64,000 nucleotides of DNA. Origin: Candidatus Kaiserbacteria bacterium (GTDB taxonomy: Bacteria; Patescibacteriota; Minisyncoccia; Phycocordibacterales; UBA2100). The notes beneath the pieces are model-generated. The model ran no database searches. It saw nothing but the letters and a program-made list of their open reading frames with translations, and had not been told where the DNA came from. A program made the position numbers and the translations under genes. The stretch covers positions 13,973-77,972 of the forward strand of contig JAQBRI010000005.1 in NCBI GenBank assembly GCA_028286585.1, read 5' to 3'. Of the stretch, positions 1-13,920 are shown one piece after another; the stretch's first letter is position 1, and each line of letters starts with the position of its first letter.

Positions 1-1193
1 CAAACGTATCAGGCGCAACCGACTCACTCGCAAATACAAAAATTGCGACCGTAAACACAATCCTTTCCGCATATCAATCTATTGAAAACACGGTAACGAC
101 CGTCGCCGATTCAATGATCACCAATCCCAACACTGTATCGCCGCAGTTCGTTGTGACTACATCAAATTCCCAAACTCCAATCGCAATTCAAAATCAGCGA
201 ACAGCAATGAATCCTATTCTCAGCCGTGAACATTCCAAAACTTCGACTCTTTCACCAAGCGATGATCTTCTTGGAGAAATCACTGCGACAGAAAGCGATG
301 CACGTGCAGCCCTTACTCTTATGAACACTATTGTTTTAGGACTTAACAATGCAATCCCAACGACACAAGTCTCGGCATCTACCATTGCAGGTTATTTGGC
401 AAGTGCTTCAGCTGCACGCACGCAACTTAATGCAACACTTGCTAGTTTGAGCACTGCGCGCGAAACATACAACGGCAAAGTAACTGCTCTTACCGCGGCT
501 CAGCAAAACCTCGCACAAGGAGTAACTGGCGGACAAGCGGAGGATGTCTCTGCAGGAGAAGCGTCATTGCAATCGGCCCAGGGCGGACTTGCGGCAGCGC
601 AAGCTGCCTACGAACACTCAATTGTTCGTGCTCCAATTTCTGGATCCATTACAATGCTTTCACTCAAACAGGGTGACTTTGCGACCGCATTTGCTCCGGT
701 TGCAACAATCGCAAACAATGCCGGACTCGAGGTCGTTGCCTATGTAAACTCTACTGATTTGCGAGCGCTTAGTGTTGGAACCAAGGCTACGCTCGACAGT
801 GGCGCAACTGGCGTTGTCACACGACTTGCTACAGCAGTCGATCCAGCGAGTAAAAAGGCAGAAGTACATATTGGTGTAACATCACGCGGTACGCTTACCA
901 ATGGACAATCAACAACGGTATCATTTGCTCGCGCAGATCAAACATCGAGTTCAAATACTGTTACTGCTACCACAACTGGCGATATAATCATCCCACTCAG
1001 TGCCATAAAGGTAGGTTCAGACAATATGTCTGTATTTACACTCTCTGCTTCAAGTACATTGATGACTCACGTTGTTACTATCGGCACATTGTTGGGTGAC
1101 AGAGTACAAATTCTTACTGGCATTACACCGGACATGACTATCGTAGTCGATGCGCGCGGACTAAGAGAGGGCCAAAAGGTCATCACACAATAA
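1..1193 (+). CDS. RND efflux periplasmic adaptor (membrane fusion protein, HlyD/AcrA-like); 5' end runs off the window
   Basis: The reading frame is open from nt 3. It has an Ala/Gln-rich coiled-coil segment followed by a beta-barrel region (IVRAPISGSITMLSLKQGDFA...ATIANNAGLEVVAYVNSTDL) typical of MFPs. The stop is 2 nt before the RND permease start. Confidence 0.7.
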   Translation, partial: NVSGATDSLANTKIATVNTILSAYQSIENTVTTVADSMITNPNTVSPQFVVTTSNSQTPIAIQNQRTAMNPILSREHSKTSTLSPSDDLLGEITATESDARAALTLMNTIVLGLNNAIPTTQVSASTIAGYLASASAARTQLNATLASLSTARETYNGKVTALTAAQQNLAQGVTGGQAEDVSAGEASLQSAQGGLAAAQAAYEHSIVRAPISGSITMLSLKQGDFATAFAPVATIANNAGLEVVAYVNSTDLRALSVGTKATLDSGATGVVTRLATAVDPASKKAEVHIGVTSRGTLTNGQSTTVSFARADQTSSSNTVTATTTGDIIIPLSAIKVGSDNMSVFTLSASSTLMTHVVTIGTLLGDRVQILTGITPDMTIVVDARGLREGQKVITQ

Positions 1194-1194
1194 T

Positions 1195-4100
1195 ATGTTG
1201 CCAATCTGGCATTTCTTTATAGAAAAGCGACAATTCACCATTCTGGTGATTATCGGTCTTACTATCGTTGGCGGCGTGGCAGCAAAAGTCACAACCAAGG
1301 AATCAGCTCCCGAAGTTGAAATTCCTGTTGGCGTCGTTTCAACCGTTCTGCCTGGAGCATCCCCAGAAGAAGTCGAGCGATTGGTCACCAACAAACTCGA
1401 AACACGACTCGCTAACCTTTCTAACGTCAACAAAATTACTTCGACATCGCGCGAAAGTGTGTCTGTCATAACAGTCGAGTTTAACGCTTCGGCCAATCTT
1501 GAGAAGTCGATCCAAACGCTCAAGGATGAAATAGATAAGGCAAAAACCGATCTTCCTACCGATGCACAGGCGCCAAATGTCACCGATGTAAACTTTGTTG
1601 ATCAGCCAATTCAAATTATTTCCATCTCGGCCGATCGCCCGTTTTCTGAACTATCCACACTAGGAGAAACACTCAAGAATGAACTGCAAGGAGTGCATGG
1701 GGTGTCTCGAGTAGAGGTCTCAGGTGCACCTGACCGTGAAATACAAATCGTTGCACGCAAGGAAGCCTTGGCACAATACGGTATCAGTCTTTCACAAGTG
1801 GTAAGTGCGATTTCAAGCGCCAACACGACTCTTCCGATAGGCTCCATCACGACCGACGATATTGTATACAACATCGCCTTTGATGGCGGCCTCGACAACG
1901 TTACGGACCTGGGAGGTCTTCCAATACTCAATGTAAATGGTCAGGTTATTTATTTGCGAGATATAGCGACAGTTTCAGACGGTGTACAACGCTCAACTTC
2001 ATATACACGCGTCTCGGTTGAAAACGCACCATCACAACAAGCACTTACACTCGCAATATATAAGGTCCGCGGATATGACGTGACAAAAGCAACTGTTGAT
2101 GTCCGTGCAAAATTGACTGAACTGCAAAAGACAATCCTCTTGGGAAGTTCTTATCTCATCACGAACGACGCCGGAGACAAGGTCCAGACCGACTTGACCG
2201 AACTAACCAAAACTGGCCTCGAAACAATAGCGCTCGTTATGCTTGCACTGTTTGCAACTATCGGATGGCGAGAAGCGATTATCGCAGGACTTTCGATTCC
2301 ATTATCATTTCTTATCGCGTTTATCGGCATTTTGTATTCTGGTAACACAATCAACTTCGTATCACTTTTTGCGCTGATTCTCGCCATAGGTATTTTGGTG
2401 GACTCAGGCATCGTCATAGTTGAGGCAATCCATACTCGCACCCGTGAATACAACGATCCTCATAAGGCAGCGTACGAGGCACTTCGCGAATATGCGTGGG
2501 CACTTATTGGCGGAACCATGACGACTGTTGCAGTGTTTGTTCCCCTATTCTTTATCTCCGGTGTCGTGGGTAAATTTATCGCAACGATTCCTTTTACTAT
2601 TATCTTTGTACTTCTTGCATCAATCTTTGTCTCACTCGGACTTGTACCTACGCTGGTACTTTTGTTTGTGCGTCATGACGGTAAAACTTCTCCTTTTATG
2701 GAATGGCAGGAACAAATGGCTGAAAAGTCCCGCGTTTGGTATGCGGCGCATCTTGATTCGTTCTTTCATCATCGAAGAACTCAAAATATCTTTCTTACAC
2801 TGTTGGGTGTTGGATTTGTTGCATCAATCTGCTTGCCTATTTTTGGCGCGATGCCGGTACAATTTTTCCCTCAAGCAGACAGTGATTTTATCTATGTTGA
2901 TATTGAAATGCCATATGGTACTACACTTGAGCGCACCGATCTTGCAGCACGAGAAATTGAAGAAAAACTATATACAACCCGAGGTATCGAATCATTTACC
3001 ACAACTGTTGGTCAGACTTCTGCATTTGGTAATGCCCCAGCTCAAGCTGCACGATATGCGACTGTAACTATCAATCTTCCAAAAAAACGTATCGTTAGTA
3101 GTACCAACTTGGTTGAATCAGTACGTAAAAATACCGATAGTATTCATGACGCTATCATTCGCGTAGGCGAACCATCAGGAGGTCCACCAGTTGGGGCCGC
3201 GGTCTTAATCAAATTTACAGGTGACAATCTCGAGACCCTAAACAGCGTTGCAGACAAAGCACGTGACGTGCTTGCTTCTACTCCCGGTGCTACTACCGTT
3301 GACGCAACAACAAAGGATACTGGTTCTGAATTTGTCCTTACACTCGACCGAGGAGCTCTTGCTTCGGCTGGCATTAGTCCTCTTATTGCCGCAAGCACCC
3401 TACATACTGCAGTTGCCGGTGTTACCGCAACCAAATTTACTGGTGGAAGCAAAGATGTGGATGTAATTGTGTCTCTCAATCTCAACTCGCAATTTACCGA
3501 TCCGCATGATGCGTCGAAAACAACTATTGATACCATTCGACAGATTCCTGTACCTGCTCAAAACGGCGGTACCGTATTCCTGGGTTCCCTACTTACTCCT
3601 TCAATTCAGCGCAGTAATGCCATCATCACGCATGAAGACCGTATGCGTGTTGTGAGTGTTACTGGAGACACATTACCCGGATATACCGTTGCACAAGTTG
3701 TTGCGGCATTCCAAAAGAAATATGCGGCGAGCAACACATTGCCTGCCGGTGTCACCATGACGATTGGCGGTGAAGACGAACAAACGAACCAGTCTTTTGC
3801 AGAAATGGGGCTTGCTCTTCTTGCCGGACTTGCCCTCATGTTTGTGATTCTCGTACTTGCATTTGATTCATTCCGATATACCTCGTACCTCCTTCTTGCC
3901 GTACCGCTTTCCCTCATCGGTGTACTCACTGGACTCACGCTGATGGGTCAGCCACTTTCGTTCCCTTCGCTTCTCGGCGTAATTGCGCTTGCGGGAGTTA
4001 TCATCAACCACGCCATCATCTTGATGGACTCGATTATCGTTCGACTGAATGCTGGTGGCGGAAAGACGCTTCGCGCGATTGTTGTGGAATCTGCTACAAG

Positions 4101-4302
4101 CCGACTTCGTCCGATATTCCTCACAACCATCACAACCGTCATCGGCATGCTTCCGCTTACTGCAGCATCACCTTTGTGGGGACCGCTCGCATGGGCAATT
4201 CTGTTTGGACTATCGTTTGCGATGATTCTTACGTTGATTCTTATTCCACTCTTGGTATATCGCTTCCCAAGCAAACTCCCAGAAGGAGTCATTAGAGGTT
4301 AG
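1195..4302 (+). CDS. RND efflux transporter permease (AcrB/HAE family)
   Basis: The 1035-aa product has 12-TM AcrB architecture and an N-terminal motif MLPIWHFFIEKRQFTILVIIGLTIVGG...SPEEVERLVTNKLE. It has two large periplasmic loops and is translationally coupled to the upstream adaptor. Confidence 0.85.
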   Translation: MLPIWHFFIEKRQFTILVIIGLTIVGGVAAKVTTKESAPEVEIPVGVVSTVLPGASPEEVERLVTNKLETRLANLSNVNKITSTSRESVSVITVEFNASANLEKSIQTLKDEIDKAKTDLPTDAQAPNVTDVNFVDQPIQIISISADRPFSELSTLGETLKNELQGVHGVSRVEVSGAPDREIQIVARKEALAQYGISLSQVVSAISSANTTLPIGSITTDDIVYNIAFDGGLDNVTDLGGLPILNVNGQVIYLRDIATVSDGVQRSTSYTRVSVENAPSQQALTLAIYKVRGYDVTKATVDVRAKLTELQKTILLGSSYLITNDAGDKVQTDLTELTKTGLETIALVMLALFATIGWREAIIAGLSIPLSFLIAFIGILYSGNTINFVSLFALILAIGILVDSGIVIVEAIHTRTREYNDPHKAAYEALREYAWALIGGTMTTVAVFVPLFFISGVVGKFIATIPFTIIFVLLASIFVSLGLVPTLVLLFVRHDGKTSPFMEWQEQMAEKSRVWYAAHLDSFFHHRRTQNIFLTLLGVGFVASICLPIFGAMPVQFFPQADSDFIYVDIEMPYGTTLERTDLAAREIEEKLYTTRGIESFTTTVGQTSAFGNAPAQAARYATVTINLPKKRIVSSTNLVESVRKNTDSIHDAIIRVGEPSGGPPVGAAVLIKFTGDNLETLNSVADKARDVLASTPGATTVDATTKDTGSEFVLTLDRGALASAGISPLIAASTLHTAVAGVTATKFTGGSKDVDVIVSLNLNSQFTDPHDASKTTIDTIRQIPVPAQNGGTVFLGSLLTPSIQRSNAIITHEDRMRVVSVTGDTLPGYTVAQVVAAFQKKYAASNTLPAGVTMTIGGEDEQTNQSFAEMGLALLAGLALMFVILVLAFDSFRYTSYLLLAVPLSLIGVLTGLTLMGQPLSFPSLLGVIALAGVIINHAIILMDSIIVRLNAGGGKTLRAIVVESATSRLRPIFLTTITTVIGMLPLTAASPLWGPLAWAILFGLSFAMILTLILIPLLVYRFPSKLPEGVIRG

Positions 4303-4329
4303 AACTTCTTGATGACTGTGTGCTGAATA

Positions 4330-4929
4330 TTATATTCCTCGCGAGCCGAGTCTTTTGACCTTGGCAAACCACTTAACTTTCATTGATTCGGTCATGCGCT
4401 CCGAAGGTCCAAACATAGTTGTGGCAACCTTGATACCAGCAAAGCCTAATATATTGTCCTTAATGGTATGCGTCACATCCCCCATCGAAAGCCACAAAAG
4501 CCATGGCGGACTATTAGTTGCAACAATAAGACGTGCGGTCTTTCCTTTGAGTAATTTATCCCACATGTGCAGTCGTCCAAGCCATCCCTCTTTAAAATAT
4601 CTAAAAGCAAACCGAGGAATCCACGTACGATCAAAAAGTCCCTTAAGAAGGGCTGGCATTGTTCCCCACCAATTAGGATAGATGATTACTATATGATCCG
4701 CCGCACGAATTCTATTTTGAAAAAGTACCAGATCGGGCTCCAACTGCTGAATAGTTTTATAACCGTGATGCAAAATCGGATCAAACTTCATATCCTCGAT
4801 ATGCATTACTTCAACAGTATGTCCGGCTTCTCGTGCGTTTTGTACATAGATCTCGGCCAGTGCTCCGCATAGACCTTTGCAATCTGGATTACCGACAAAT
4901 ACGAAGATGTTTTTCTTACGCATATTCAC
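4330..4929 (-). CDS. NAD(P)H-dependent oxidoreductase, flavodoxin-like fold (MdaB/quinone reductase family)
   Basis: The 199-aa product contains VFVGNPDCKGLCGALAE...ADHIVIIYPNWWGTMPALLKGLFDR, a typical Flavodoxin_2 / NAD(P)H dehydrogenase (quinone) signature. Confidence 0.6.
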   Translation of the reverse strand: MNMRKKNIFVFVGNPDCKGLCGALAEIYVQNAREAGHTVEVMHIEDMKFDPILHHGYKTIQQLEPDLVLFQNRIRAADHIVIIYPNWWGTMPALLKGLFDRTWIPRFAFRYFKEGWLGRLHMWDKLLKGKTARLIVATNSPPWLLWLSMGDVTHTIKDNILGFAGIKVATTMFGPSERMTESMKVKWFAKVKRLGSRGI

Positions 4930-4931
4930 AC

Positions 4932-5120
4932 TTATTCGTCTCCTTCACTTTCTCCTGTTTTTAAATAATCCTCTTTTTCCGGCATATTGCCGTCGGCATC
5001 TTTATCAAACTCAGGGTTGTGCGCCTCTTGATCAGGAAATTGTTTCATTGCCTGCTCGAGCTCACTTTTAATTGAAGCGTCATCTTGTATTTCGTCCGGT
5101 TCAATAAATTCTGTATTCAT
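4932..5120 (-). CDS. small acidic hypothetical protein (62 aa)
   Basis: The ORF sits tightly between its neighbours on the same strand. The product is highly acidic (D/E-rich) with no recognisable domain. Confidence 0.3.
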   Translation of the reverse strand: MNTEFIEPDEIQDDASIKSELEQAMKQFPDQEAHNPEFDKDADGNMPEKEDYLKTGESEGDE

Positions 5121-5135
5121 ACTGGTAAGTATATA

Positions 5136-5471
5136 CTACTTTTTTATACGCATGTGAATATCTGCCTGTGTCTGGGCTAGCGCAACGAGTGCAATTGGCG
5201 AATCATTGGACTGTGCGGAATTTCGCTTGGTATGTCCGCATGATTCACACGTGTGAGTGATCATGTATCTCGCAACAGTGCCTTCGATACCAATTGGTTT
5301 CATCATCCCACCGCACGTTGCACCGCGATCTCCCGGCTCAATATCGACATGCTTACTCCACAAACAGGTCGGGCAATGGTTGGTGTATCCAGTTCCTTGT
5401 GTCGGAACCTTGCAATGCTCGCATACGAAATCTTCTTTTTTTCTTTGAAATGCCATGGTTTTATTGTACAA
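5136..5471 (-). CDS. RNHCP-domain zinc-ribbon protein
   Basis: The product has CEHC...GYTNHCPTCLWSKH...CGGMM...CESCGH, i.e. four Cys pairs and the NHCP motif typical of the RNHCP domain. The true start is probably the internal MAFQRKKE, at nt 5456. Confidence 0.55.
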   Translation of the reverse strand: MYNKTMAFQRKKEDFVCEHCKVPTQGTGYTNHCPTCLWSKHVDIEPGDRGATCGGMMKPIGIEGTVARYMITHTCESCGHTKRNSAQSNDSPIALVALAQTQADIHMRIKK

Positions 5472-7566
5472 CTATTGTCTTATTTTTTGTGACAGAAACA
5501 CCTGCATAGGTAGTGCAGCGCATCTCAAACAATGCCGAACCAACAGCAGAAAGCGTAACCGAAGTTGATCCCTCATTACGAGCTGTGATTGGTTTTGCAT
5601 TATATAGAATTGTACATGGATTGTTTGTACTCATACCGGTTGATGACCATATTACCAGAACATTTGATCCAAGTCGCGGAGTCGTCGCCTGGACGATTAT
5701 CTGTGCCGTTGCTGGAACATTTTGTGAAGTTGGTGTACCTGGGTTGAGTGCTTGCTGCAAGTTGGTCGATGCTGACGTATTGAGCTGTATTTGCTGCGGA
5801 GTATATTGTTGCTGTCCAGTTATTGGGTTGTATGTGGCGCCTCCGCTTGAAGAACCACCTGCCGAAGAGCCGCTTGATCCATAGGATGGCGCTTGTGGGT
5901 ATGATTGCGTCGGAGCATATTGCGTTTGAGGGTATCCGCTTGAGTATTGATTCTGAGGACTTGCTCCTACAGGAGCCGTTGCATACGCTGGTGCAGGGCT
6001 GGCATACGCAAATGGACTGCCTTGGAATTGAGTGGTCTGTGTACCTTCTCCGGCAAAACTAAACGGACTCGAAGAATTGGAAGAATACGCAGGAGCAGGA
6101 CTGCTATATGAAGGTCCGCTTGCGGCGGTTGGCGTTCCGCCCATATTAGTTTCTATTTTTCCAACAGCCTGAGCCAGCGTAATGTTTCCATTACCAAAAT
6201 TCACTGGATTGTTTGCAATAGAATATGATTGCAGTCCGATACTGTTTACCGTTGCGTCTGGATTGTTGGCGTATGCCTGTATGAACTTTGGTCCGTCCCC
6301 AACACCGATGTTGTGTATCAAATACGCTCCAGTTGCAGGATCAAGACCTGCCTGGTCAATGCGATCTCCATATTTGTTCAAATAATACGAGACCGACGAG
6401 GCAGTTACTTGTGCCGATGTTTCCGGATCAAATCGCAGTGATGGTGAAAGAGGTACGCCACCGTTCATGCGGGCACTATCTATTGCCCAGGTACTTGCTG
6501 TGTATTGAAAGAGCCCGCACGCTCCACTTCCTGAGCAGATGTTTGGATTACCGCCACTTTCTACTTTCATGTATTTGGCTAGCACACCGTCGGCCTTGCC
6601 GGTGAGCCCGTACTGGTCTTCAACTTTTTTTAGCATTTCGCCGTACCTTCCGCCAGGTAATGGTTTGTTTGGATCTTCTTGCGGAGCAGCAAAAGTTGAT
6701 CCAGCAGATCCAGCAGTATCTATCGATTTTTGCTGCTCTTCAGTACCAACTCCATTTGAAACAAGTGAACTAAATCCATCTGGCTGAAGCGAACTTATTT
6801 TGTTTACAGTATCAGGATTCAGCGTGATACCAAGATCGTTTTGCGCAGTCTGCTGCGCCTGGGCTACTTTTGATGGGTCTCCGGATACCAAATTTTGGAG
6901 CATGTCATATGCCTGATTTTTTTGTGAGGAATCCTGCGAAATAGTATCAGCCTTTTCTTTTTCGACACCAAGGTTTTGTAATGCTTGTGACAGCTTTGTG
7001 CTGTCGATCGCTCCATCAGTTCCCTTGATGCCGCTGATTGCCTGCTGTGCGACAGACTGTGCTGCAAGCCCACTCTGTTGTGTAAGCAAAGCGTCTATTT
7101 TTCCTTTTTGTTCTGGGTCACATTTTGAAACATCTTTCTCACTTGCCGGAGTTGAGCCGATAGCCGGAATCGAATAATGTACCGTTGCACACTCTGTTTG
7201 GAGCGTTGGCTTACAAGCGTCAGGTACGCACCAATTTAAATCCGCAGTAAGTGGAACTTTGGGCAAAATCATATTTGCCTTTGGTGTTATAGTTTTTTTG
7301 CCGGCAGCATCGATGGTTATGATGTCACTAATGCACTTATCGCTGTTTTCGGTACTCGCGTTTGCAGTTGTCTGTTTTGTTTTTATCTGCGCAGAAATTA
7401 ATTTTTTTATACAAAGTGAGGATGCTGTTTTTGGATCAAGTATTTTTGGCGCAGCGGTGGTCGCCGCAAAAAGTACCATCGGAGAAAATGCACACGCGAA
7501 GATTGCTACTGGCAAAAGAATACGTGTGAAATACATACGGTACATTGTACCTTTTATTCTATGCAA
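5461..7566 (-). CDS. secreted lysozyme-like (lytic transglycosylase/SLT-type) protein with S/P/A/Y-rich low-complexity linker
   Basis: The product has an N-terminal signal/TM segment. Its central motif KVESGGNPNICSGSGACGLFQYTASTW matches the catalytic E-S...GLMQ signature of SLT domains. The distal part is a SPAPAY/SYPQ low-complexity region. Confidence 0.55.
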   Translation of the reverse strand: MHRIKGTMYRMYFTRILLPVAIFACAFSPMVLFAATTAAPKILDPKTASSLCIKKLISAQIKTKQTTANASTENSDKCISDIITIDAAGKKTITPKANMILPKVPLTADLNWCVPDACKPTLQTECATVHYSIPAIGSTPASEKDVSKCDPEQKGKIDALLTQQSGLAAQSVAQQAISGIKGTDGAIDSTKLSQALQNLGVEKEKADTISQDSSQKNQAYDMLQNLVSGDPSKVAQAQQTAQNDLGITLNPDTVNKISSLQPDGFSSLVSNGVGTEEQQKSIDTAGSAGSTFAAPQEDPNKPLPGGRYGEMLKKVEDQYGLTGKADGVLAKYMKVESGGNPNICSGSGACGLFQYTASTWAIDSARMNGGVPLSPSLRFDPETSAQVTASSVSYYLNKYGDRIDQAGLDPATGAYLIHNIGVGDGPKFIQAYANNPDATVNSIGLQSYSIANNPVNFGNGNITLAQAVGKIETNMGGTPTAASGPSYSSPAPAYSSNSSSPFSFAGEGTQTTQFQGSPFAYASPAPAYATAPVGASPQNQYSSGYPQTQYAPTQSYPQAPSYGSSGSSAGGSSSGGATYNPITGQQQYTPQQIQLNTSASTNLQQALNPGTPTSQNVPATAQIIVQATTPRLGSNVLVIWSSTGMSTNNPCTILYNAKPITARNEGSTSVTLSAVGSALFEMRCTTYAGVSVTKNKTIVVQ

Positions 7567-7599
7567 AATGCGTCCTCAAAACCCTACTATGTTGAAAAG

Positions 7600-7848
7600 C
7601 TAAAGGAGTACAACAACTGTGTTGTCAGCACACTCAACTACTCCAGAAGTCACTTCGTATTCCCTCTTTTCGTTGCCTGCTGCATTCAAAAATATTGTGC
7701 CATGCTTGAGCGTCGTTATAAACGGCTCGTGATGAGCGAGTACGGTAAATATTCCAGACTCACCTGGAAATGTTGCCGAAATTGCCTCTCCGCTGTATTG
7801 GGTCTCGCCAACGCTCGCGATCGTAATATGAAAAGTATGATCTGCCAT
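7600..7848 (-). CDS. atpC: F0F1 ATP synthase epsilon subunit
   Basis: The product is 82 aa and lies immediately downstream of atpD. The beta-sandwich N-terminal domain pattern (ITIASVGETQYSGEAISATFPGESGIFTVLAHHEP) is present. Confidence 0.85.
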   Translation of the reverse strand: MADHTFHITIASVGETQYSGEAISATFPGESGIFTVLAHHEPFITTLKHGTIFLNAAGNEKREYEVTSGVVECADNTVVVLL

Positions 7849-7855
7849 ACTTTGT

Positions 7856-9292
<1,437 letters not shown>

Positions 9293-9351
9293 TTATCCCA
9301 GTTAGACTACCCTATTTGGGGGCCGTCTGGCCGGAACATTTTGACTCCCAG

Positions 9352-11955
9352 TTATTGGATTGGGGTAGATGAGGAATCGAGTACAGGAGTTTCTGTTACA
9401 TCATTTTCTGAAGGTGTAGTGGTGCTAGTATCTGGTTCTGGCGTTGAATCTACTTGTGCAGGAGTTCCACCAATCCCTGTTCCCCTTCCGTTCAGCCCTG
9501 TTCCCGAAAGAAGAGCATCAAGTTGAGATTTGGTGATACAAGTAGTGGCGCCCGTGTTATCGCGCACACACAACTGATCTGTAGTAACTTTGTTTAGCCC
9601 ATTACTCGAAGATCCAAGCCAGCTTACGAGCGCGTCTTTAAACCCACCGGCAATACTTCCAATATCCTTAATCGCATTCACCGTCGCAGCAAGAATAGGA
9701 CGATCTTGGAGGGTGAGATAGCCGTTGTTGGTGGTGCCGACAGCTTCTGGTATTGCCGACCGGACATTTTGTGCTGAGAAGCCAGAATAACTATTTTGTG
9801 TATCAAGGCCTGAGAGTTGATTCCAGTGGTAAGAGATTGGTGAGAGCTTCATGATGTCTGAGAGTCCTCGGGTAAATGATCCGTCGATGTTTTTCAAACG
9901 TTCGTCAGAAGATACTGAAAGGTTACCACTTGCGTCGGTGGTGAGAGTTCCCGCGCCGAAGTTGGAGAAGCGGACAGTGCCGGTGGTAGACAACTGTGCG
10001 GTGGGGGTCGAGGTGCCGATGCCAACATTACCCACGCTATCAATCCTGACTCGCTCGGCATAGGTGCCGCCGTTGTTGGTAAGGAAAGCAAGACTACCCG
10101 TATTGGTGCCGCCAGGATATACATTTCGTATTGCCGAGATATTATTCCCGAGATAATCCCGGAAAGAAATTTGGGAGTTTGCGCCAGCACCGGTGTTAGA
10201 TTCTTGTAAAATTAAGGACTCGTCCAGCAGTCCAAACCCCGCTGTCCCCCCAAAAAAACCAGAAGTGGACCGGAACTGCCCATCCTTGGTAATTGTTGCC
10301 GTGTTGTTAAAAACACCGGCGTTCAAATTGTAAAATTTTAAGTCGGAACTTCCACTGGCACCCCCAGTAGTAAGAGTAGGCCGTATAGCGTTATACAAAG
10401 TCCCGGCGCCGTAGAAATCTACACTTCCAGGGATGGAGGTGCCGCCGTTTGTTGAGTTTGAAAGAGAGAGAGAACCATACTGGGTCGCACCACCCCCACT
10501 TCCCAAAATTTGAAGTGTAGTAGAGCCTGTGCCAACAGGAGAAGCAGTACCAATACCGACGTTGCCAGCTGAATCAATGCGCATTCGCTCGGAAAGAGTG
10601 GTGCTGCCACTGGGTGTCGTCAAGAATACGAGACGCCCTGGCATGCTGGAAGAACTGACTGTCGTTCCATCAACGGTGGCATTCATAGCTGCTGCCGTTT
10701 GATAGTTTGTACCATCAAATCCTTGCCAAAAATATTGGCCGAGATTCTGCCCGTTCGACACAATTGTTGGAGCGCCCGAGGTACCTTGTGCACGGCGGAA
10801 GCCAGTGTTGGCACTCGATGAAAAGCGTGTCATTACTATTCCAAAGGTCGAGGTATTAAAAATGTCGAGGCTCGTGCCTGCACTTGGAGAACTCGTTCCG
10901 ATGCCGACGTTTCCTGACTGATCAACAATAAAACTGACAGCAGTTGATGACGCGACAACAAATTGTGGAATAGATGCGTTTGCGGCTGCAGCAATGGAAA
11001 ACCTGCCCCACGGAGTAGATGTTCCTACACCAAGCTGTCCGGTTGAAGCAGTGAGTGCTGTTCCTGAATTATTTTTACCGTACAAAATGTTTTGAATGTT
11101 CATTTGATAATTGTCGGTAGAGGAAGCAGTATTTAATAGGTTACCTATCATAATATTGTTGGAGCCTGAAGTTATGTTTGACGATCCAGATCCGACAATA
11201 ATATTGCTATTTCCCGTAATGGCTCCGCCCGTAGTTCCTCCTGCGCTTCCACCAATAACAGTATTTCCACTGCCAGTCGTAATTAAATAACCTGCATTTG
11301 TGCCGACCACCGTGTTTGAGCCGCCTGTTGTATTGATCCAACCTGCATTAATTCCAAGAAAAACATTACCTGCTCCAAGAGTATTCGCATTGCCCGCGTT
11401 GTATCCAAAGAATGAATTGGCAAAACCACCTCCACTCGAGACATCGGGAATGTTTGCCCCGGAATTGAGACCAAAGATGGTATTGCGGTACGCTACCGAA
11501 CCTGTTGCATTTGCACCTACAGAATTTCCCACAAACAAGTTTGATGAATTACCCATGTTTGTAAATACCGCTTGACCGCCACCAATCGAGAATCCGATGT
11601 TACGAGGACCAGTACTTTGTGCTCCGCCAGACGCATTAATGCCACCATTTGCATCAAGTATGTACGAAGAAGACGAGGGCGGAGTGATGCCTATCCCCAC
11701 CTTGCCTGAGATACTGTCAACAAAGAGACTACTAGTACCTACGGAGAACCCTCCTGCAAACGTACTCGTTGCGGTAGTAGATGTCGCATTAATATTTGCT
11801 GCGGTAATAGTTATATTTACAACCAAACAGGTGGGATCGCTTGGTGAACAGTTTGGGTCTAAAGTTTGGCCGGGAGTGTACGTTGTGGCAAAGGCAGACA
11901 ACGGCACGAGAAAAGATACGGCGATAAAAAGGCCTATAGCTCGTACATTTTTCAT
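9352..11955 (-). CDS. tail-fibre-like secreted protein with C-terminal intramolecular chaperone (peptidase S74-like) domain
   Basis: The product has a signal peptide. It has many Gly/Asn/Thr-rich beta-helix repeats (GNSVGANATG, NTVVGTNAGY, RIDSAGNVGIGTASP, RIDSVGNVGIGTSTP). Near residue 683 (nt 9892–9909) is SDERLKNIDGSF...LSPISYHWN, the autocleavage/chaperone motif of endosialidase-type tail spikes. Confidence 0.6.
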   Translation of the reverse strand: MKNVRAIGLFIAVSFLVPLSAFATTYTPGQTLDPNCSPSDPTCLVVNITITAANINATSTTATSTFAGGFSVGTSSLFVDSISGKVGIGITPPSSSSYILDANGGINASGGAQSTGPRNIGFSIGGGQAVFTNMGNSSNLFVGNSVGANATGSVAYRNTIFGLNSGANIPDVSSGGGFANSFFGYNAGNANTLGAGNVFLGINAGWINTTGGSNTVVGTNAGYLITTGSGNTVIGGSAGGTTGGAITGNSNIIVGSGSSNITSGSNNIMIGNLLNTASSTDNYQMNIQNILYGKNNSGTALTASTGQLGVGTSTPWGRFSIAAAANASIPQFVVASSTAVSFIVDQSGNVGIGTSSPSAGTSLDIFNTSTFGIVMTRFSSSANTGFRRAQGTSGAPTIVSNGQNLGQYFWQGFDGTNYQTAAAMNATVDGTTVSSSSMPGRLVFLTTPSGSTTLSERMRIDSAGNVGIGTASPVGTGSTTLQILGSGGGATQYGSLSLSNSTNGGTSIPGSVDFYGAGTLYNAIRPTLTTGGASGSSDLKFYNLNAGVFNNTATITKDGQFRSTSGFFGGTAGFGLLDESLILQESNTGAGANSQISFRDYLGNNISAIRNVYPGGTNTGSLAFLTNNGGTYAERVRIDSVGNVGIGTSTPTAQLSTTGTVRFSNFGAGTLTTDASGNLSVSSDERLKNIDGSFTRGLSDIMKLSPISYHWNQLSGLDTQNSYSGFSAQNVRSAIPEAVGTTNNGYLTLQDRPILAATVNAIKDIGSIAGGFKDALVSWLGSSSNGLNKVTTDQLCVRDNTGATTCITKSQLDALLSGTGLNGRGTGIGGTPAQVDSTPEPDTSTTTPSENDVTETPVLDSSSTPIQ

Positions 11956-11959
11956 ACTT

Positions 11960-13447
11960 TTAGAATGACTGTCCTGTTGGCATTCCGGTTGGGAGGTTAC
12001 TGTTGATCTTTGGCTTTCTTGTTTTGATAAAAATTATAGCGATAACTATCAATATACACAGAACTAGGAAGCCAGCTATTGCCTCGAGAGGAAGAATCGT
12101 ACATCCAAACATTTGTACATAGAATGTAAGGTACGCGTCTATCGCGGGAATGAGGACACAATTATTCTGAGTGGTTTGTGCAGCAACTGGAGCCAGAGTT
12201 TGAGTGGTATCTGTATTTTCATCAGCGGTAATGGTAAACATCGACAAGTGGTCTACATAAAATGTGACAGTGTCATACGCAAAGACGGAATTAGGAATTC
12301 CTGACCATGGATCGACAGTCGTTTCCCTTGTTTTTAGATGGAGCCCTTGCTTGCCGCGGAAGCTTGTAGGAACAGGGAGTGTTATCTTGAGCAATTTACT
12401 AAACTTGTGTATTGGTGCATTTGTTATCGCATTATATGCAGAAATATCATACACATCTCCTACCGGTGGCTGCCCTGGCGTTTGATGCGCCGTTTGTACT
12501 GTTATGCGAAATACCGTCGGAACATTTGATGATCCTGGCTGCACCTCAAGCTTAACCATTCCTATACCAGGAAGAATTTGTTCGAGAATACCGCATTCGG
12601 TTGTCTTGAGAGTAAGGAGATCATTGGTTACCAATATACAATTTTTACCTGCGTTAAACGAATCGGAAACGGATGCAGTTGATGTAGATTGGCCGCCTGT
12701 TTTTATTATCGTATGAGTAGCTGGCGGCGGAGTCGTTGGCTCTGCATGTGTAGGGCTGGTCTTGGGATTAAAGATTGAAGCTGGATTGTTTGTATAGAGT
12801 GCTCCCAATGTTGCAACACTTACGGATAGAGAACTTGTTGGAGATGTTGAAGTCGCGACTCCGCCGCCACTAGAACCCCCAGTAGAACCACCACTGCTTG
12901 GGCTACCGCCGCCGCCCGTTACTGGTGCGCTACGCCAAGTGACAGAACGCCAGTCTGTTTGGACCCAACAGTTTGTACAATCAAATGTAATCGTGCCAAT
13001 ATTAGATCCGTTGCCAACCCCGGCCGCAGTACCCTGGAATCGTCCGTTGACGCCGATAGTTACTCCTGTAAAATTGATCCAACCAGTACCCGCTCCCCAT
13101 GCAAACCCTCCAAGATGTCCCTCGCCATCGTTGGTAACTCCTCCCTGACTTGGCGCCATGTTGATCCAGCCGGTATTACTATCCCACGCATAGCCAGTGA
13201 CAGCGGTGTCAGTTATTTGCAATCCCCCATTGGTAGTACCAAAATTGATCCAGCCGTCGTTGTTACTCCATGCATAGGCATGTACAGAGTCGATCGTACC
13301 AACAGATGTTGACGCAGAAGCGTATGATGCAAAGGTAAAGAATATACCCAAGAGAAGGATCGCATACTGCAGAAAAGTCCGATACGTTGATAGTGATAGT
13401 GTCCCCATACGTGTCTTATTATTCATAATTATATGAAAATTATACAC
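11960..13447 (-). CDS. hypothetical surface protein with three G(Y/F)AW-x-N-x-GWINF repeats and C-terminal TM anchor
   Basis: The product has a signal/TM N-terminus. The repeats are AYAWSNNDGWINF, GYAWDSNTGWINM and GFAWGAGTGWINF. It is Gly/Ser-rich and has a hydrophobic C-terminal helix followed by KTRKPK. It lies 4 nt upstream of the tail-fibre-like gene. Confidence 0.5.
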   Translation of the reverse strand: MYNFHIIMNNKTRMGTLSLSTYRTFLQYAILLLGIFFTFASYASASTSVGTIDSVHAYAWSNNDGWINFGTTNGGLQITDTAVTGYAWDSNTGWINMAPSQGGVTNDGEGHLGGFAWGAGTGWINFTGVTIGVNGRFQGTAAGVGNGSNIGTITFDCTNCWVQTDWRSVTWRSAPVTGGGGSPSSGGSTGGSSGGGVATSTSPTSSLSVSVATLGALYTNNPASIFNPKTSPTHAEPTTPPPATHTIIKTGGQSTSTASVSDSFNAGKNCILVTNDLLTLKTTECGILEQILPGIGMVKLEVQPGSSNVPTVFRITVQTAHQTPGQPPVGDVYDISAYNAITNAPIHKFSKLLKITLPVPTSFRGKQGLHLKTRETTVDPWSGIPNSVFAYDTVTFYVDHLSMFTITADENTDTTQTLAPVAAQTTQNNCVLIPAIDAYLTFYVQMFGCTILPLEAIAGFLVLCILIVIAIIFIKTRKPKINSNLPTGMPTGQSF

Positions 13448-13571
13448 TGGATGTACCTGTCCATCTAATAAGATAGGGGTAATAAGGGGATAACCGTAGT
13501 ACTAAATTTATTTTTATAAAAGCCCAGTAGTTAGTACTGCCGGGCTTTTAATGTGTTTCGAATCAAATTTG

Positions 13572-13644
13572 TGGACCCTACAGGACTCGAACCTGCCACC
13601 CCCTCATTGCAAATGAGGTGCTCTACCAGATGAGCTAAGGGCCC
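13572..13644 (-). tRNA. tRNA-Ala (anticodon TGC)
   Basis: The reverse complement folds as a cloverleaf: acceptor GGGCCCT/AGGGTCC with a G3·U70 wobble (the Ala identity element), anticodon loop TTTGCAA, T-loop TTCGAGT. It is 73 nt and CCA is not encoded. Confidence 0.85.
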
Positions 13645-13653
13645 AATTAATGC

Positions 13654-13920
13654 TTATGCATTATTCTCGGACTCGAACATTGTATCACTTTCTTTTGACA
13701 TTTCAATATCTTTATCGGTGACGGCTCCTGCATCGTGTGTTGACCACGAAACCACACAATATCCCCACCCGAGCTCGATATCCGGATGGTGCTGCATCTT
13801 TTCTGCGTAGTTTCCAAGCTTGTTTACAAACGCGAGTGCGCTTACAAAATCTGGAAATGCATACCGTTTGGTAAGCTTGATACCGTCATTTTGCCATTCG
13901 TTCAGTGTAGCGTTGTTCAT
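13654..13920 (-). CDS. 4a-hydroxytetrahydrobiopterin (pterin-4a-carbinolamine) dehydratase
   Basis: The 88-aa product has the EKMQHHPDIELGWGY motif, the PCD signature [E/K]xxxHHPx5-6[YW]. Confidence 0.8.
   Translation of the reverse strand: MNNATLNEWQNDGIKLTKRYAFPDFVSALAFVNKLGNYAEKMQHHPDIELGWGYCVVSWSTHDAGAVTDKDIEMSKESDTMFESENNA

Follow-up and report, generated by a model that had tools for sequence, protein, structure and literature searches.

A probable self-chaperoned adhesin fibre and its recurrent GWINF-domain gene partner in place of atpBEFHAG in a Candidatus Kaiserbacteria genome

In this study, we analysed a 64-kb stretch of DNA (hereafter the window) from a 93-kb contig of a Candidatus Kaiserbacteria metagenome-assembled genome (MAG; Patescibacteria, of the candidate phyla radiation, CPR; locus tags JWO50). 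A gene for an 867-aa tail-fibre-like protein lies there between atpDC and a gene for a repeat-bearing membrane protein, which we call the GWINF protein. The fibre is most likely a self-chaperoned trimeric adhesin, and its sequence features mark its gene as a cellular one and not a prophage remnant. Genes of these two kinds repeatedly stand side by side in this bacterial group, and here their cassette took the place of atpBEFHAG, six of the eight ATP synthase genes, between tRNA-Ala and atpD, so that the linkage with atpDC is probably a scar of rearrangement. We give this whole account a probability of about 0.62. A previous sequence-only reading of this region had reported a tail-fibre-like protein with a peptidase S74 domain upstream of atpDC, and had favoured a domesticated surface fibre over a prophage; its observation was confirmed, while its interpretation was partly supported.

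The fibre is 100% identical to NCBI MDB5187644.1 (JWO50_164; protein P0001), and the hallmarks of a fibre that had been read from it were borne out. Glycine, serine, threonine and asparagine account for 49% of its residues (14.9%, 13.1%, 12.4% and 8.9%, respectively), and five tandem units of about 17 aa with the pattern N-x-x-x-G-x-N-A-G occupy aa 158–245 of the first shaft region, which AlphaFold models as short beta strands with a confidence (pLDDT) of 55–75. The RIDSxGNVGIGT unit occurs exactly at aa 459 and 637 and in a looser GxVGIG form at aa 84 and 348, and each module of the second shaft region closes with the capping-loop motif (R)IDSxGNVGIGTxxP (aa 348, 464 and 642). The SDERLKNI motif begins at aa 683, its Ser codon at 9907–9909 exactly as claimed, and opens the C-terminal domain, which matches the Peptidase S74 family of Pfam (aa 683–739, E 1.1e-7, 32.4 bits against a gathering score of 22) over model positions 1–57 of 58. 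Ser683 and Lys688 of the S683-D-E-R-L-K688 segment are invariant in 40 aligned homologues, and SDERLK is likewise invariant in our alignment A4; autocleavage before Ser683 is thus predicted by family membership and conserved residues. The profile of PHROG tail-fibre family phrog_9942 matched at E 2.4e-30, PHROG 18345 matched too, and tail-fibre families cover aa 386–672. Taken together with the Pfam score and the invariant dyad, these matches indicate a tail-fibre-like protein with a genuine S74 chaperone domain.

The N-terminus reads as a Sec-type signal peptide with a K/R n-region, a hydrophobic core and an AFA cleavage motif (…LSAFA then TTY…), and the same n-h-c layout with AFA can be read in paralogues P0002–P0014. 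It is followed by a family-specific motif with the consensus PGxTLxPxC(x5-7)C, preceded by Y-x. This N-module is common to P0002–P0014, P0028 and the fibres of loci L087, L090, L091, L098, L103, L142, L144 and L150, and the closest homologues share the signal peptide plus about 50 residues behind it. A sequence search of the PDB found solely the mosaic adhesive trimer (MAT) fibres of Bdellovibrio bacteriovorus (8OML/Bd1334 at E 2.6e-9, 8ON4, 8OND/Bd2133, 8OL4/Bd2439 and 8OJN). In the structure prediction, the S74 domain was modelled confidently in the AlphaFold monomer (pLDDT 85–94, aa 690–800), and Foldseek recovered the S74 fold in the T5 fibre with chaperone (4UW8, E 1.4e-5) and the MyRF ICA domain (7DC3, 1.6e-4), with a weaker match to 3GW6 (5.5e-2), after the MAT fibres as the top hits (8oml 1e-6, 8onf 1e-5). 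By homology to these proteins, the shaft would have a trimeric beta-helix architecture.

Many S74 fibres of other loci (L090, 9143–11764; L089, 2–3073; P0015–P0031) carry a Bact_surface_Ig-like domain (PF16403) after the S74 domain. Since this domain lies on the piece predicted to be freed by autocleavage, the released fragment may be more than a disposable chaperone in those proteins.

The view that this is a cell-surface fibre rather than a prophage gene was strengthened by the putative signal peptide and the family-specific N-module, and further by paralogues and housekeeping neighbours. Three paralogues occur in the same MAG (JWO50_51, _88 and _164; proteins P0001, P0005 and P0006), which were assigned to one MAG because accession numbers track locus tags; by the same arithmetic P0028 (MDB5188133) is possibly a fourth. 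Three further paralogues lie together on one 233-kb metagenomic contig. The paralogues range from 566 to 1398 aa, with both ends conserved and the middle variable, and some homologues insert discoidin or Kelch-like domains. Five fibre loci were fetched (L082–L086), two of them near-identical, which gives four distinct contexts; their neighbours are housekeeping genes such as rpoBC, trmD, rpsP, gltX and other tRNA synthetase genes, recG and dnaA. In the window, the neighbours of the fibre gene are atpDC, the SLT-domain gene, tRNA-Ala, pterin dehydratase, ddl and uvrABC, none of which has a phage structural, packaging or integration role. Pfam detected no phage structural gene from −9 to +20 kb around the fibre or in the four distinct homologue contexts; across 114–29612 it found no phage gene, as had been noted, including no integrase. 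The whole fibre had no close relative among the viral contigs of IMG/VR. Around the cassette we found neither direct repeats marking an insertion nor a GC anomaly.

The neighbouring protein had been described as an unusual surface protein, which its layout of a type I membrane protein and a domain with no Pfam, PDB or viral match uphold. Its GWINF domain has three (Y/F)AW-x4-GWIN(F/M) repeats followed by FDCTNCxVxTDWR. The three GWIN repeats that had been reported are real (YAWSNNDGWINF, YAWDSNTGWINM and FAWGAGTGWINF), while the stricter pattern (Y/F)AW-x2-N-x-GWINF holds exactly in the first only. AlphaFold, given an alignment of 79 sequences, models the domain (aa 50–170) as all-beta at a pLDDT of about 95, and a disordered G/S/T/P linker of about 100 aa separates it from a second beta-sandwich. 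This model would make the protein a type I membrane protein with the GWINF domain outermost on a long stalk. The second domain resembles weakly the ankyrin ZU5 domain (3ud2, Foldseek E 1.1e-3) and the NLRP1 FIIND (7crw); ZU5-type domains can self-cleave. These ZU5-like matches were the sole Foldseek hits, and no fold in the PDB or BFVD matched the GWINF domain at E≤1e-3. For two GWINF proteins Pfam gave zero families even at E≤10, including cell-wall-binding repeats such as CW_binding_1. No NCBIfam or PHROG family matched the domain, the profile of alignment A3 found no sequence in the PDB, neither IMG/VR nor the viral fold set BFVD contained a relative, and no mention of the motif turned up in the literature that could be searched. 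On the other hand, among 1.84 billion cluster representatives (50% identity clusters) the domain was found in 3,150 at E≤1e-3 and in 1,635 at E≤1e-10, at residues ~25–150 in almost all of the 3,150. In other proteins it is followed by PG_binding_1, CarboxypepD_reg, fn3 or PKD domains. It is a large, undescribed family that deserves its own family definition.

The GWINF gene had been treated as an incidental neighbour, a view that the following results overturn. For the pairing test, 80 metagenomic loci were anchored solely on the GWINF domain, using the domain-only alignment A3, and scanned with hidden Markov models (HMMs) built from our own alignments, with the N-motif sought by regular expression because its HMM was too strict; the controls were 80 atpD-anchored loci (1.39 Mb of related genomes). 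An S74 domain was found 0.4–2 kb upstream on the same strand in 21/80 GWINF loci, against 1/80 controls with an S74 domain anywhere (Fisher p 3e-6). Among loci whose sequence extends 1.5 kb or more upstream, the count was 18/54, and no S74 domain was found downstream in the 33 loci with enough downstream sequence. Adjacency was enriched about 28-fold over control DNA, and the signal persisted when GWINF domains were collapsed at 90% identity (12/43 eligible clusters S74-positive, Fisher p 1e-5). The N-motif stood upstream of the GWINF gene in 17/80 loci as against 0/80 controls, and in all eight upstream fibres whose N-terminus lies inside the fetched sequence; 30/80 GWINF loci had an S74 domain or the N-motif. 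The spacing is tight. The closest GWINF homologue (46% identity, L087/L088) is followed after 23 nt by a gene opening with the fibre signal peptide and N-motif, and in L090 the gene of an 873-aa S74 fibre, again bearing the N-motif, starts 90 nt behind a GWINF gene. These loci share the order of the window, GWINF then fibre, while in L089 an S74 fibre gene stops 5 nt ahead of the GWINF gene.

Nine loci (L122, L130, L132, L137, L141, L146, L154, L155 and L157) have an N-motif gene directly upstream of the GWINF gene with no detectable S74 domain. By analogy with the NS74 MAT fibres, they may represent a 'non-S74' branch. The L090 pair lies 6 kb from a tyrosine integrase gene and an HTH_17 gene (998–2343), with small open reading frames (ORFs) that match no PHROG structural family. 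This pair may belong to a genomic island, which hints that the cassette is mobile.

The linkage with atpDC had been called odd if co-transcribed. As framed, this was not sustained, as 0/79 relatives share the linkage and atpD has a conserved TATAAT box of its own. What is truly unusual, and had gone unremarked, is the absence of atpBEFHAG and the presence of the two-gene cassette in their stead beside tRNA-Ala. The 26 nearest relatives have an atpD 74–86% identical to that of the window, and all 22 whose sequence reaches far enough upstream have the order atpBEFHAGDC, which was verified by Pfam in L002. The other four loci end short upstream and none contradicts it, with atpA-atpG-atpD visible in two. 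None of atpB, E, F, H, A and G was found in the whole window. Downstream, the synteny of atpC, SLT, RNHCP, flavodoxin and AcrB genes is conserved. Upstream, L019 reads uvrC-ddl-…-tRNA-Ala(TGC)-…-atpB, L024 reads pterin dehydratase-tRNA-Ala(TGC)-…-atpB and L026 reads tRNA-Ala(TGC)-…-atpB. The cassette is therefore bordered on either side by what ancestrally bordered the operon, and the GWINF–fibre pair took the place of atpBEFHAG between tRNA-Ala and atpD. Logan contigs of SRR13312974 match window positions 1–9753 and 11782–13600 at 100% identity; the first spans the 3' end of the fibre gene to atpD and the second spans tRNA-Ala, the GWINF gene and the 5' end of the fibre gene, which excludes an assembler artefact.

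The atpD gene is intact; of 205 near-invariant columns it departs from just one (rank 15 of 79). No AtpA of this MAG was among the best 120 matches to the AtpA of a relative, and the MAG may be incomplete. The similarly named MDB5238418 was rejected as its AtpA, as accession arithmetic places it in another MAG. That the lineage truly lost atpBEFHAG and keeps atpDC under selection for another role is a separate possibility, less likely than the two-part attachment system proposed below. The replaced genes call for caution in metabolic reconstruction from this MAG. They also indicate a permeable atp operon in this clade, with unrelated genes inside it and an internal promoter-like box before atpD. 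The encoded AtpC has just 82 aa, with the beta-sandwich domain and no C-terminal helical domain, and that of relatives is likewise short.

The spacer between the fibre gene and atpD contains an imperfect hairpin (9294–9338), a T8 run (9276–9283) and a perfect TATAAT (9261–9266) 10 nt before the atpD ATG. A promoter-like box is therefore present upstream of atpD, while a consensus scan found no terminator, and the fold of the spacer (−27.2 kcal/mol, z −1.27) is not significant. A TATAAT 10–20 nt before the atpD ATG is conserved in the window and its closest relatives L001, L004 and L006. The gene preceding atpD in L006 is Ham1 and not atpG, and L001 and L004 have unannotated sequence there that we take, by eye, to be NUDIX-like. 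The L002 operon (5334–9995) contains an HD/YfbR-like gene, a 107-aa ORF and Ham1. The conserved box suggests that atpDC has its own start signal in this clade, an internal promoter with a very short leader. With such a signal, the position of the fibre upstream needs no functional explanation, and the linkage would be a lineage-specific rearrangement scar and not a functional operon. Read-through from the fibre gene into atpDC is possible.

Based on these results, we propose the following scheme. The fibre would be exported by Sec through its N-terminal signal peptide. As is typical of its family, the C-terminal S74 domain would register three chains and nucleate folding of the trimeric shaft. 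The Ser683/Lys688 dyad, whose residues are present, would then cut before Ser683 and free a 185-aa chaperone. The mature fibre of about 660 aa would be held on the cell by its N-terminal Cys-loop module and project outward as an adhesin, whose likely target is a substrate or the host cell of this presumed episymbiont, and atpDC would be transcribed from its own promoter-like element. The recurrence of the GWINF gene beside such fibres makes a functional partnership most likely. Our preferred guess is that the GWINF protein could be the surface dock for the N-module of the fibre; this is the weakest step of the scheme and was drawn from the gene neighbourhood. A two-part attachment system of Patescibacteria, in which S74-self-chaperoned fibres plug their N-terminal Cys-loop module into a threefold-repeated GWINF dock, is hence a tentative proposal that we consider possible but doubtful. 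Little is known of the means by which ultrasmall Patescibacteria recognise their hosts and stay attached to them, and the fibre family and its partner gene are concrete candidates. The literature that we searched names type IV pili and unspecified adhesins, and contained no link of S74 or tail-fibre-like proteins to Patescibacteria. If true, the two-part system would add a second host-recognition device beside the type IV pili.

Several points weigh against our account. Most of the GWINF loci (50/80) had no adjacent fibre, no GWINF gene was found within 8–10 kb in the five fibre loci L082–L086, and most paired loci run fibre then GWINF, opposite to the window. The unpaired loci on both sides imply that the partnership is facultative or one-to-many, and the absence in L082–L086 would fit one partner serving several fibres. 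The full-length AlphaFold monomer had a mean pLDDT of 59.6 and was confident only in the S74 domain and one shaft module; a poor monomer model would be expected if the fibre is an obligate trimer. The episymbiotic lifestyle is presumed from the phylum. The Logan contigs may come from the MAG's own reads, and a minority population variant is compatible with them.

The locus could also be explained as the leftover tail fibre of a degraded prophage or tailocin, with the GWINF gene as a passenger. The fibre does match PHROG tail-fibre profiles, the L090 pair lies near an integrase gene, and the cassette adjoins a tRNA gene, a classic integration site. Moreover, a scan with the S74 domain only found genuine phage contigs (L171–L173) carrying S74 domains 50–62% identical. 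The S74 chaperone module is commonly shared with phages, however, and such identity therefore speaks for a shared module and not for a prophage at this site. Fibres of virions assemble in the cytoplasm and as a rule lack a signal peptide, whereas this fibre is predicted to have one. The family is multi-copy per genome with a conserved non-viral N-module, the searches of viral sets for close relatives of the whole fibre and for the GWINF domain came back empty, and phage structural genes were absent from −9 to +20 kb here, from the four homologue contexts and from beside the L090 pair, so that we regard this explanation as very improbable. The chance that the fibre is a secreted tailspike-like depolymerase, thus an enzyme and not an adhesin, also appears to be very small. 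Endosialidases are the proteins on which the S74 domain was originally described, and glycosidase activity is frequent among beta-helical tailspikes, but Pfam, NCBIfam and PHROGs revealed no catalytic domain in the fibre, and the part of the chain ahead of S74 aligns with shafts of fibres that are not enzymes.

A different question is whether the fibre is correctly identified but independent of the GWINF protein, the two being co-regulated surface proteins of a shared surface-protein island with no docking between them. The fusion of GWINF domains to PG_binding_1, CarboxypepD_reg, fn3 and PKD domains elsewhere agrees with this, and so does the majority of GWINF genes that have no fibre neighbour. 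The GWINF domain may then bind the cell wall or glycans in the manner of choline-binding repeats; its aromatic-rich hairpin repeats presumably resemble wall-binding repeats in style. Yet no wall-binding repeat of Pfam matched even at the loosest threshold, the paired genes abut or lie 4–90 nt apart in a strand-consistent manner at the enrichment given above, and they are adjacent in both gene orders across divergent lineages. We consider independence unlikely, though with an appreciable chance of being right. As to atpDC, the adjacency and the missing atpBEFHAG might stem from faulty assembly or binning, or from a variant carried by a minority of the population, while the real chromosome has a normal operon. 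The genome is a MAG, the species-representative collection holds no genome with an atpD more than 86% identical, and atpD shows no decay, as is expected if the enzyme is complete. A random chimera is nevertheless an unlikely source, since pterin dehydratase and tRNA-Ala at one end of the cassette and atpDC-SLT-RNHCP-flavodoxin-AcrB at its other end agree with the surroundings that the operon had ancestrally, and the fibre–atpD and tRNA–GWINF–fibre junctions each lie inside a Logan contig at 100% identity. Such an origin is improbable in our judgement, and we retain the reading of a cellular adhesin fibre whose cassette replaced atpBEFHAG.

The coordinates of the features are given in Table 1. 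Read along the minus strand, the features run uvrA, uvrC, ddl, pterin-4a-carbinolamine dehydratase, tRNA-Ala(TGC), a hairpin with a T-run, the GWINF gene, the fibre gene, atpD and atpC; 3' of atpC follow the genes for a secreted SLT-domain protein, an RNHCP protein and a flavodoxin-like protein, with AcrB and HlyD next. The GWINF and fibre genes are co-directional, as had been stated, with 4 nt between them. The distance of 74 nt that had been given from the fibre gene to atpD holds for the TTG start of the ORF finder. The start of atpD is almost certainly ATG 9250, since alignments with homologues set in immediately behind it and a separate gene call arrived at the identical protein, and the spacer is therefore 101 nt. 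For the GWINF gene the likely starts are ATG 13426 or ATG 13408, the latter giving the 482 aa of P0121 (a Logan gene call), and a TATAAT at 13439–13444 falls within the GTG-start version of the ORF.

Table 1. Features of the fibre–GWINF cassette and its flanks (positions in the window)
Feature	Position	Strand	Basis
Fibre gene	9352..11955	-	ORF, 867 aa
Sec-type signal peptide, aa 1-23, MKNVRAIGLFIAVSFLVPLSAFA cut before TT	11887..11955	-	read from sequence
Conserved N-terminal module with Cys-loop motif YTPGQTLDPNCSPSDPTC, aa 24-75	11731..11886	-	homologue comparison
G/N/S/T-rich shaft, aa 158-270	11146..11484	-	~17-aa N-x-x-x-G-x-N-A-G repeats
MAT-like/tail-fibre-like shaft modules, aa 330-680	9916..10968	-	PDB, Foldseek and PHROG matches
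Peptidase S74 intramolecular chaperone domain, aa 683-820	9496..9909	-	Pfam PF13884
Low-complexity acidic, S/T/P-rich C-terminal tail, aa 821-867	9355..9495	-	sequence; pLDDT <50
GWINF-domain membrane protein gene	11960..13447	-	ORF finder, 495 aa, GTG start 13447
N-terminal hydrophobic helix/signal sequence, aa 19-39 of 495 (...FTFASYASA then ST)	13331..13393	-	AlphaFold helix and sequence
GWINF domain, aa 48-169	12941..13306	-	AlphaFold and alignment A3
Second beta-sandwich domain, ZU5-like, aa 271-410	12218..12637	-	pLDDT 75-91
C-terminal transmembrane anchor, aa 454-475, then basic tail KTRKPK	12023..12088	-	AlphaFold helix and sequence
Pterin-4a-carbinolamine dehydratase gene	13654-13920	-	
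tRNA-Ala(TGC), upstream cassette boundary	13571..13644	-	ARAGORN
Hairpin then T-run after tRNA-Ala, terminator-like	13517..13550	-	inverted repeat I3 and sequence
Fibre-atpD spacer	9251..9351	-	sequence
atpD	7856-9250	-	Pfam
atpC	7600-7848	-	Pfam

Two neighbours downstream of atpC were also characterised. The gene at 5461–7566 (minus strand) encodes a 701-aa secreted protein that combines an SLT lytic transglycosylase domain with long S/T/Q/P-rich stretches of low complexity; its PHROG matches to 'lytic tail protein' and 'endolysin' stem from the SLT domain alone, and it is syntenic downstream of atpC in L001, L002 and L006. At 114–4302 (plus strand) lies a resistance-nodulation-division (RND) efflux pair of an HlyD-family adaptor and an AcrB-family pump, which is near atpDC also in L007, L013, L017 and L019. 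Such a pair is unexpected in a cell thought to lack an outer membrane.

The S74 fold with a Ser-Lys dyad at the start of the domain is shared with pb1, the L-shaped tail fibre of phage T5 (4UW8), and with the C-terminal chaperone of the K1F endosialidase (3GW6). Both belong to virions, their genes lie among those for phage structural proteins, and neither has a signal peptide, whereas the Kaiserbacteria fibre is chromosomal, presumably exported and multi-copy. The MyRF ICA domain (7DC3; Foldseek E 1.6e-4, TM 0.54–0.58 on target) is likewise an S74-type auto-processing trimerisation domain outside phages, but MyRF is a membrane-bound transcription factor of eukaryotes whose N-terminal part and biology are unrelated to those of the fibre. 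Trimeric autotransporter adhesins share a repetitive G/N/S/T-rich stalk, and JGI names some homologues of the fibre thus. However, they end in a YadA-type C-terminal anchor, in the place of which the Kaiserbacteria fibre has its S74 chaperone; Pfam detected no YadA-like anchor in the fibre even at E≤10, and no other domain of these adhesins.

The fibre is a new addition to the cellular fibre adhesins that end in an S74 domain, and the MAT fibres of B. bacteriovorus are its nearest relatives in sequence and logic. Caulton et al. (2024, PMC10769870) described MATs as cellular, signal-peptide-bearing fibres on the surface of the predator, 13/21 of which end in an S74 domain with SDxxxK. They reported a shaft capping-loop motif V-G-G/N-pi-x-x-P-x-x-x-L and a conserved beta-rich N-terminal domain of about 130 aa shared by the MATs. 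Like the S74 subgroup of these fibres (e.g. Bd3182; 8ONB, 8OML, 8OND and 8OL4), the Kaiserbacteria fibre has several paralogues and a putative signal peptide and presumably belongs to a bacterium living on bacteria. The two also share shaft modules with a GIGT-P-x3-L capping-loop motif, an SDxxxK-bearing S74 end and a mosaic build of conserved ends and a variable middle. The GNVGIGTxxPxxxL segment of Kaiserbacteria aligns to 8OML and 8OND, with one residue more between V-G and P than in the MAT consensus. On the other hand, the MAT fibres belong to a Gram-negative predator and the fibre described here to a monoderm-type CPR bacterium, the N-module of Kaiserbacteria is the short Cys-loop motif PGxTLxPxC(x5-7)C, and the segment just before the cleavage site, variable in MAT, is conserved here. 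In addition, the CPR fibres have a recurrent adjacent GWINF gene for which there is no described Bdellovibrio counterpart. By these sequence criteria the CPR subfamily looks like a distinct variant, with its own N-terminal Cys-loop motif and a recurrent GWINF partner gene, and it would extend the MAT concept to a second, unrelated group dependent on other bacteria. The surface element that binds the N-domain of MAT fibres is unknown (PMC10769870). If the GWINF protein docks the fibre as we tentatively propose, the two-part system would show the kind of surface anchor that is lacking for the MAT fibres of Bdellovibrio.

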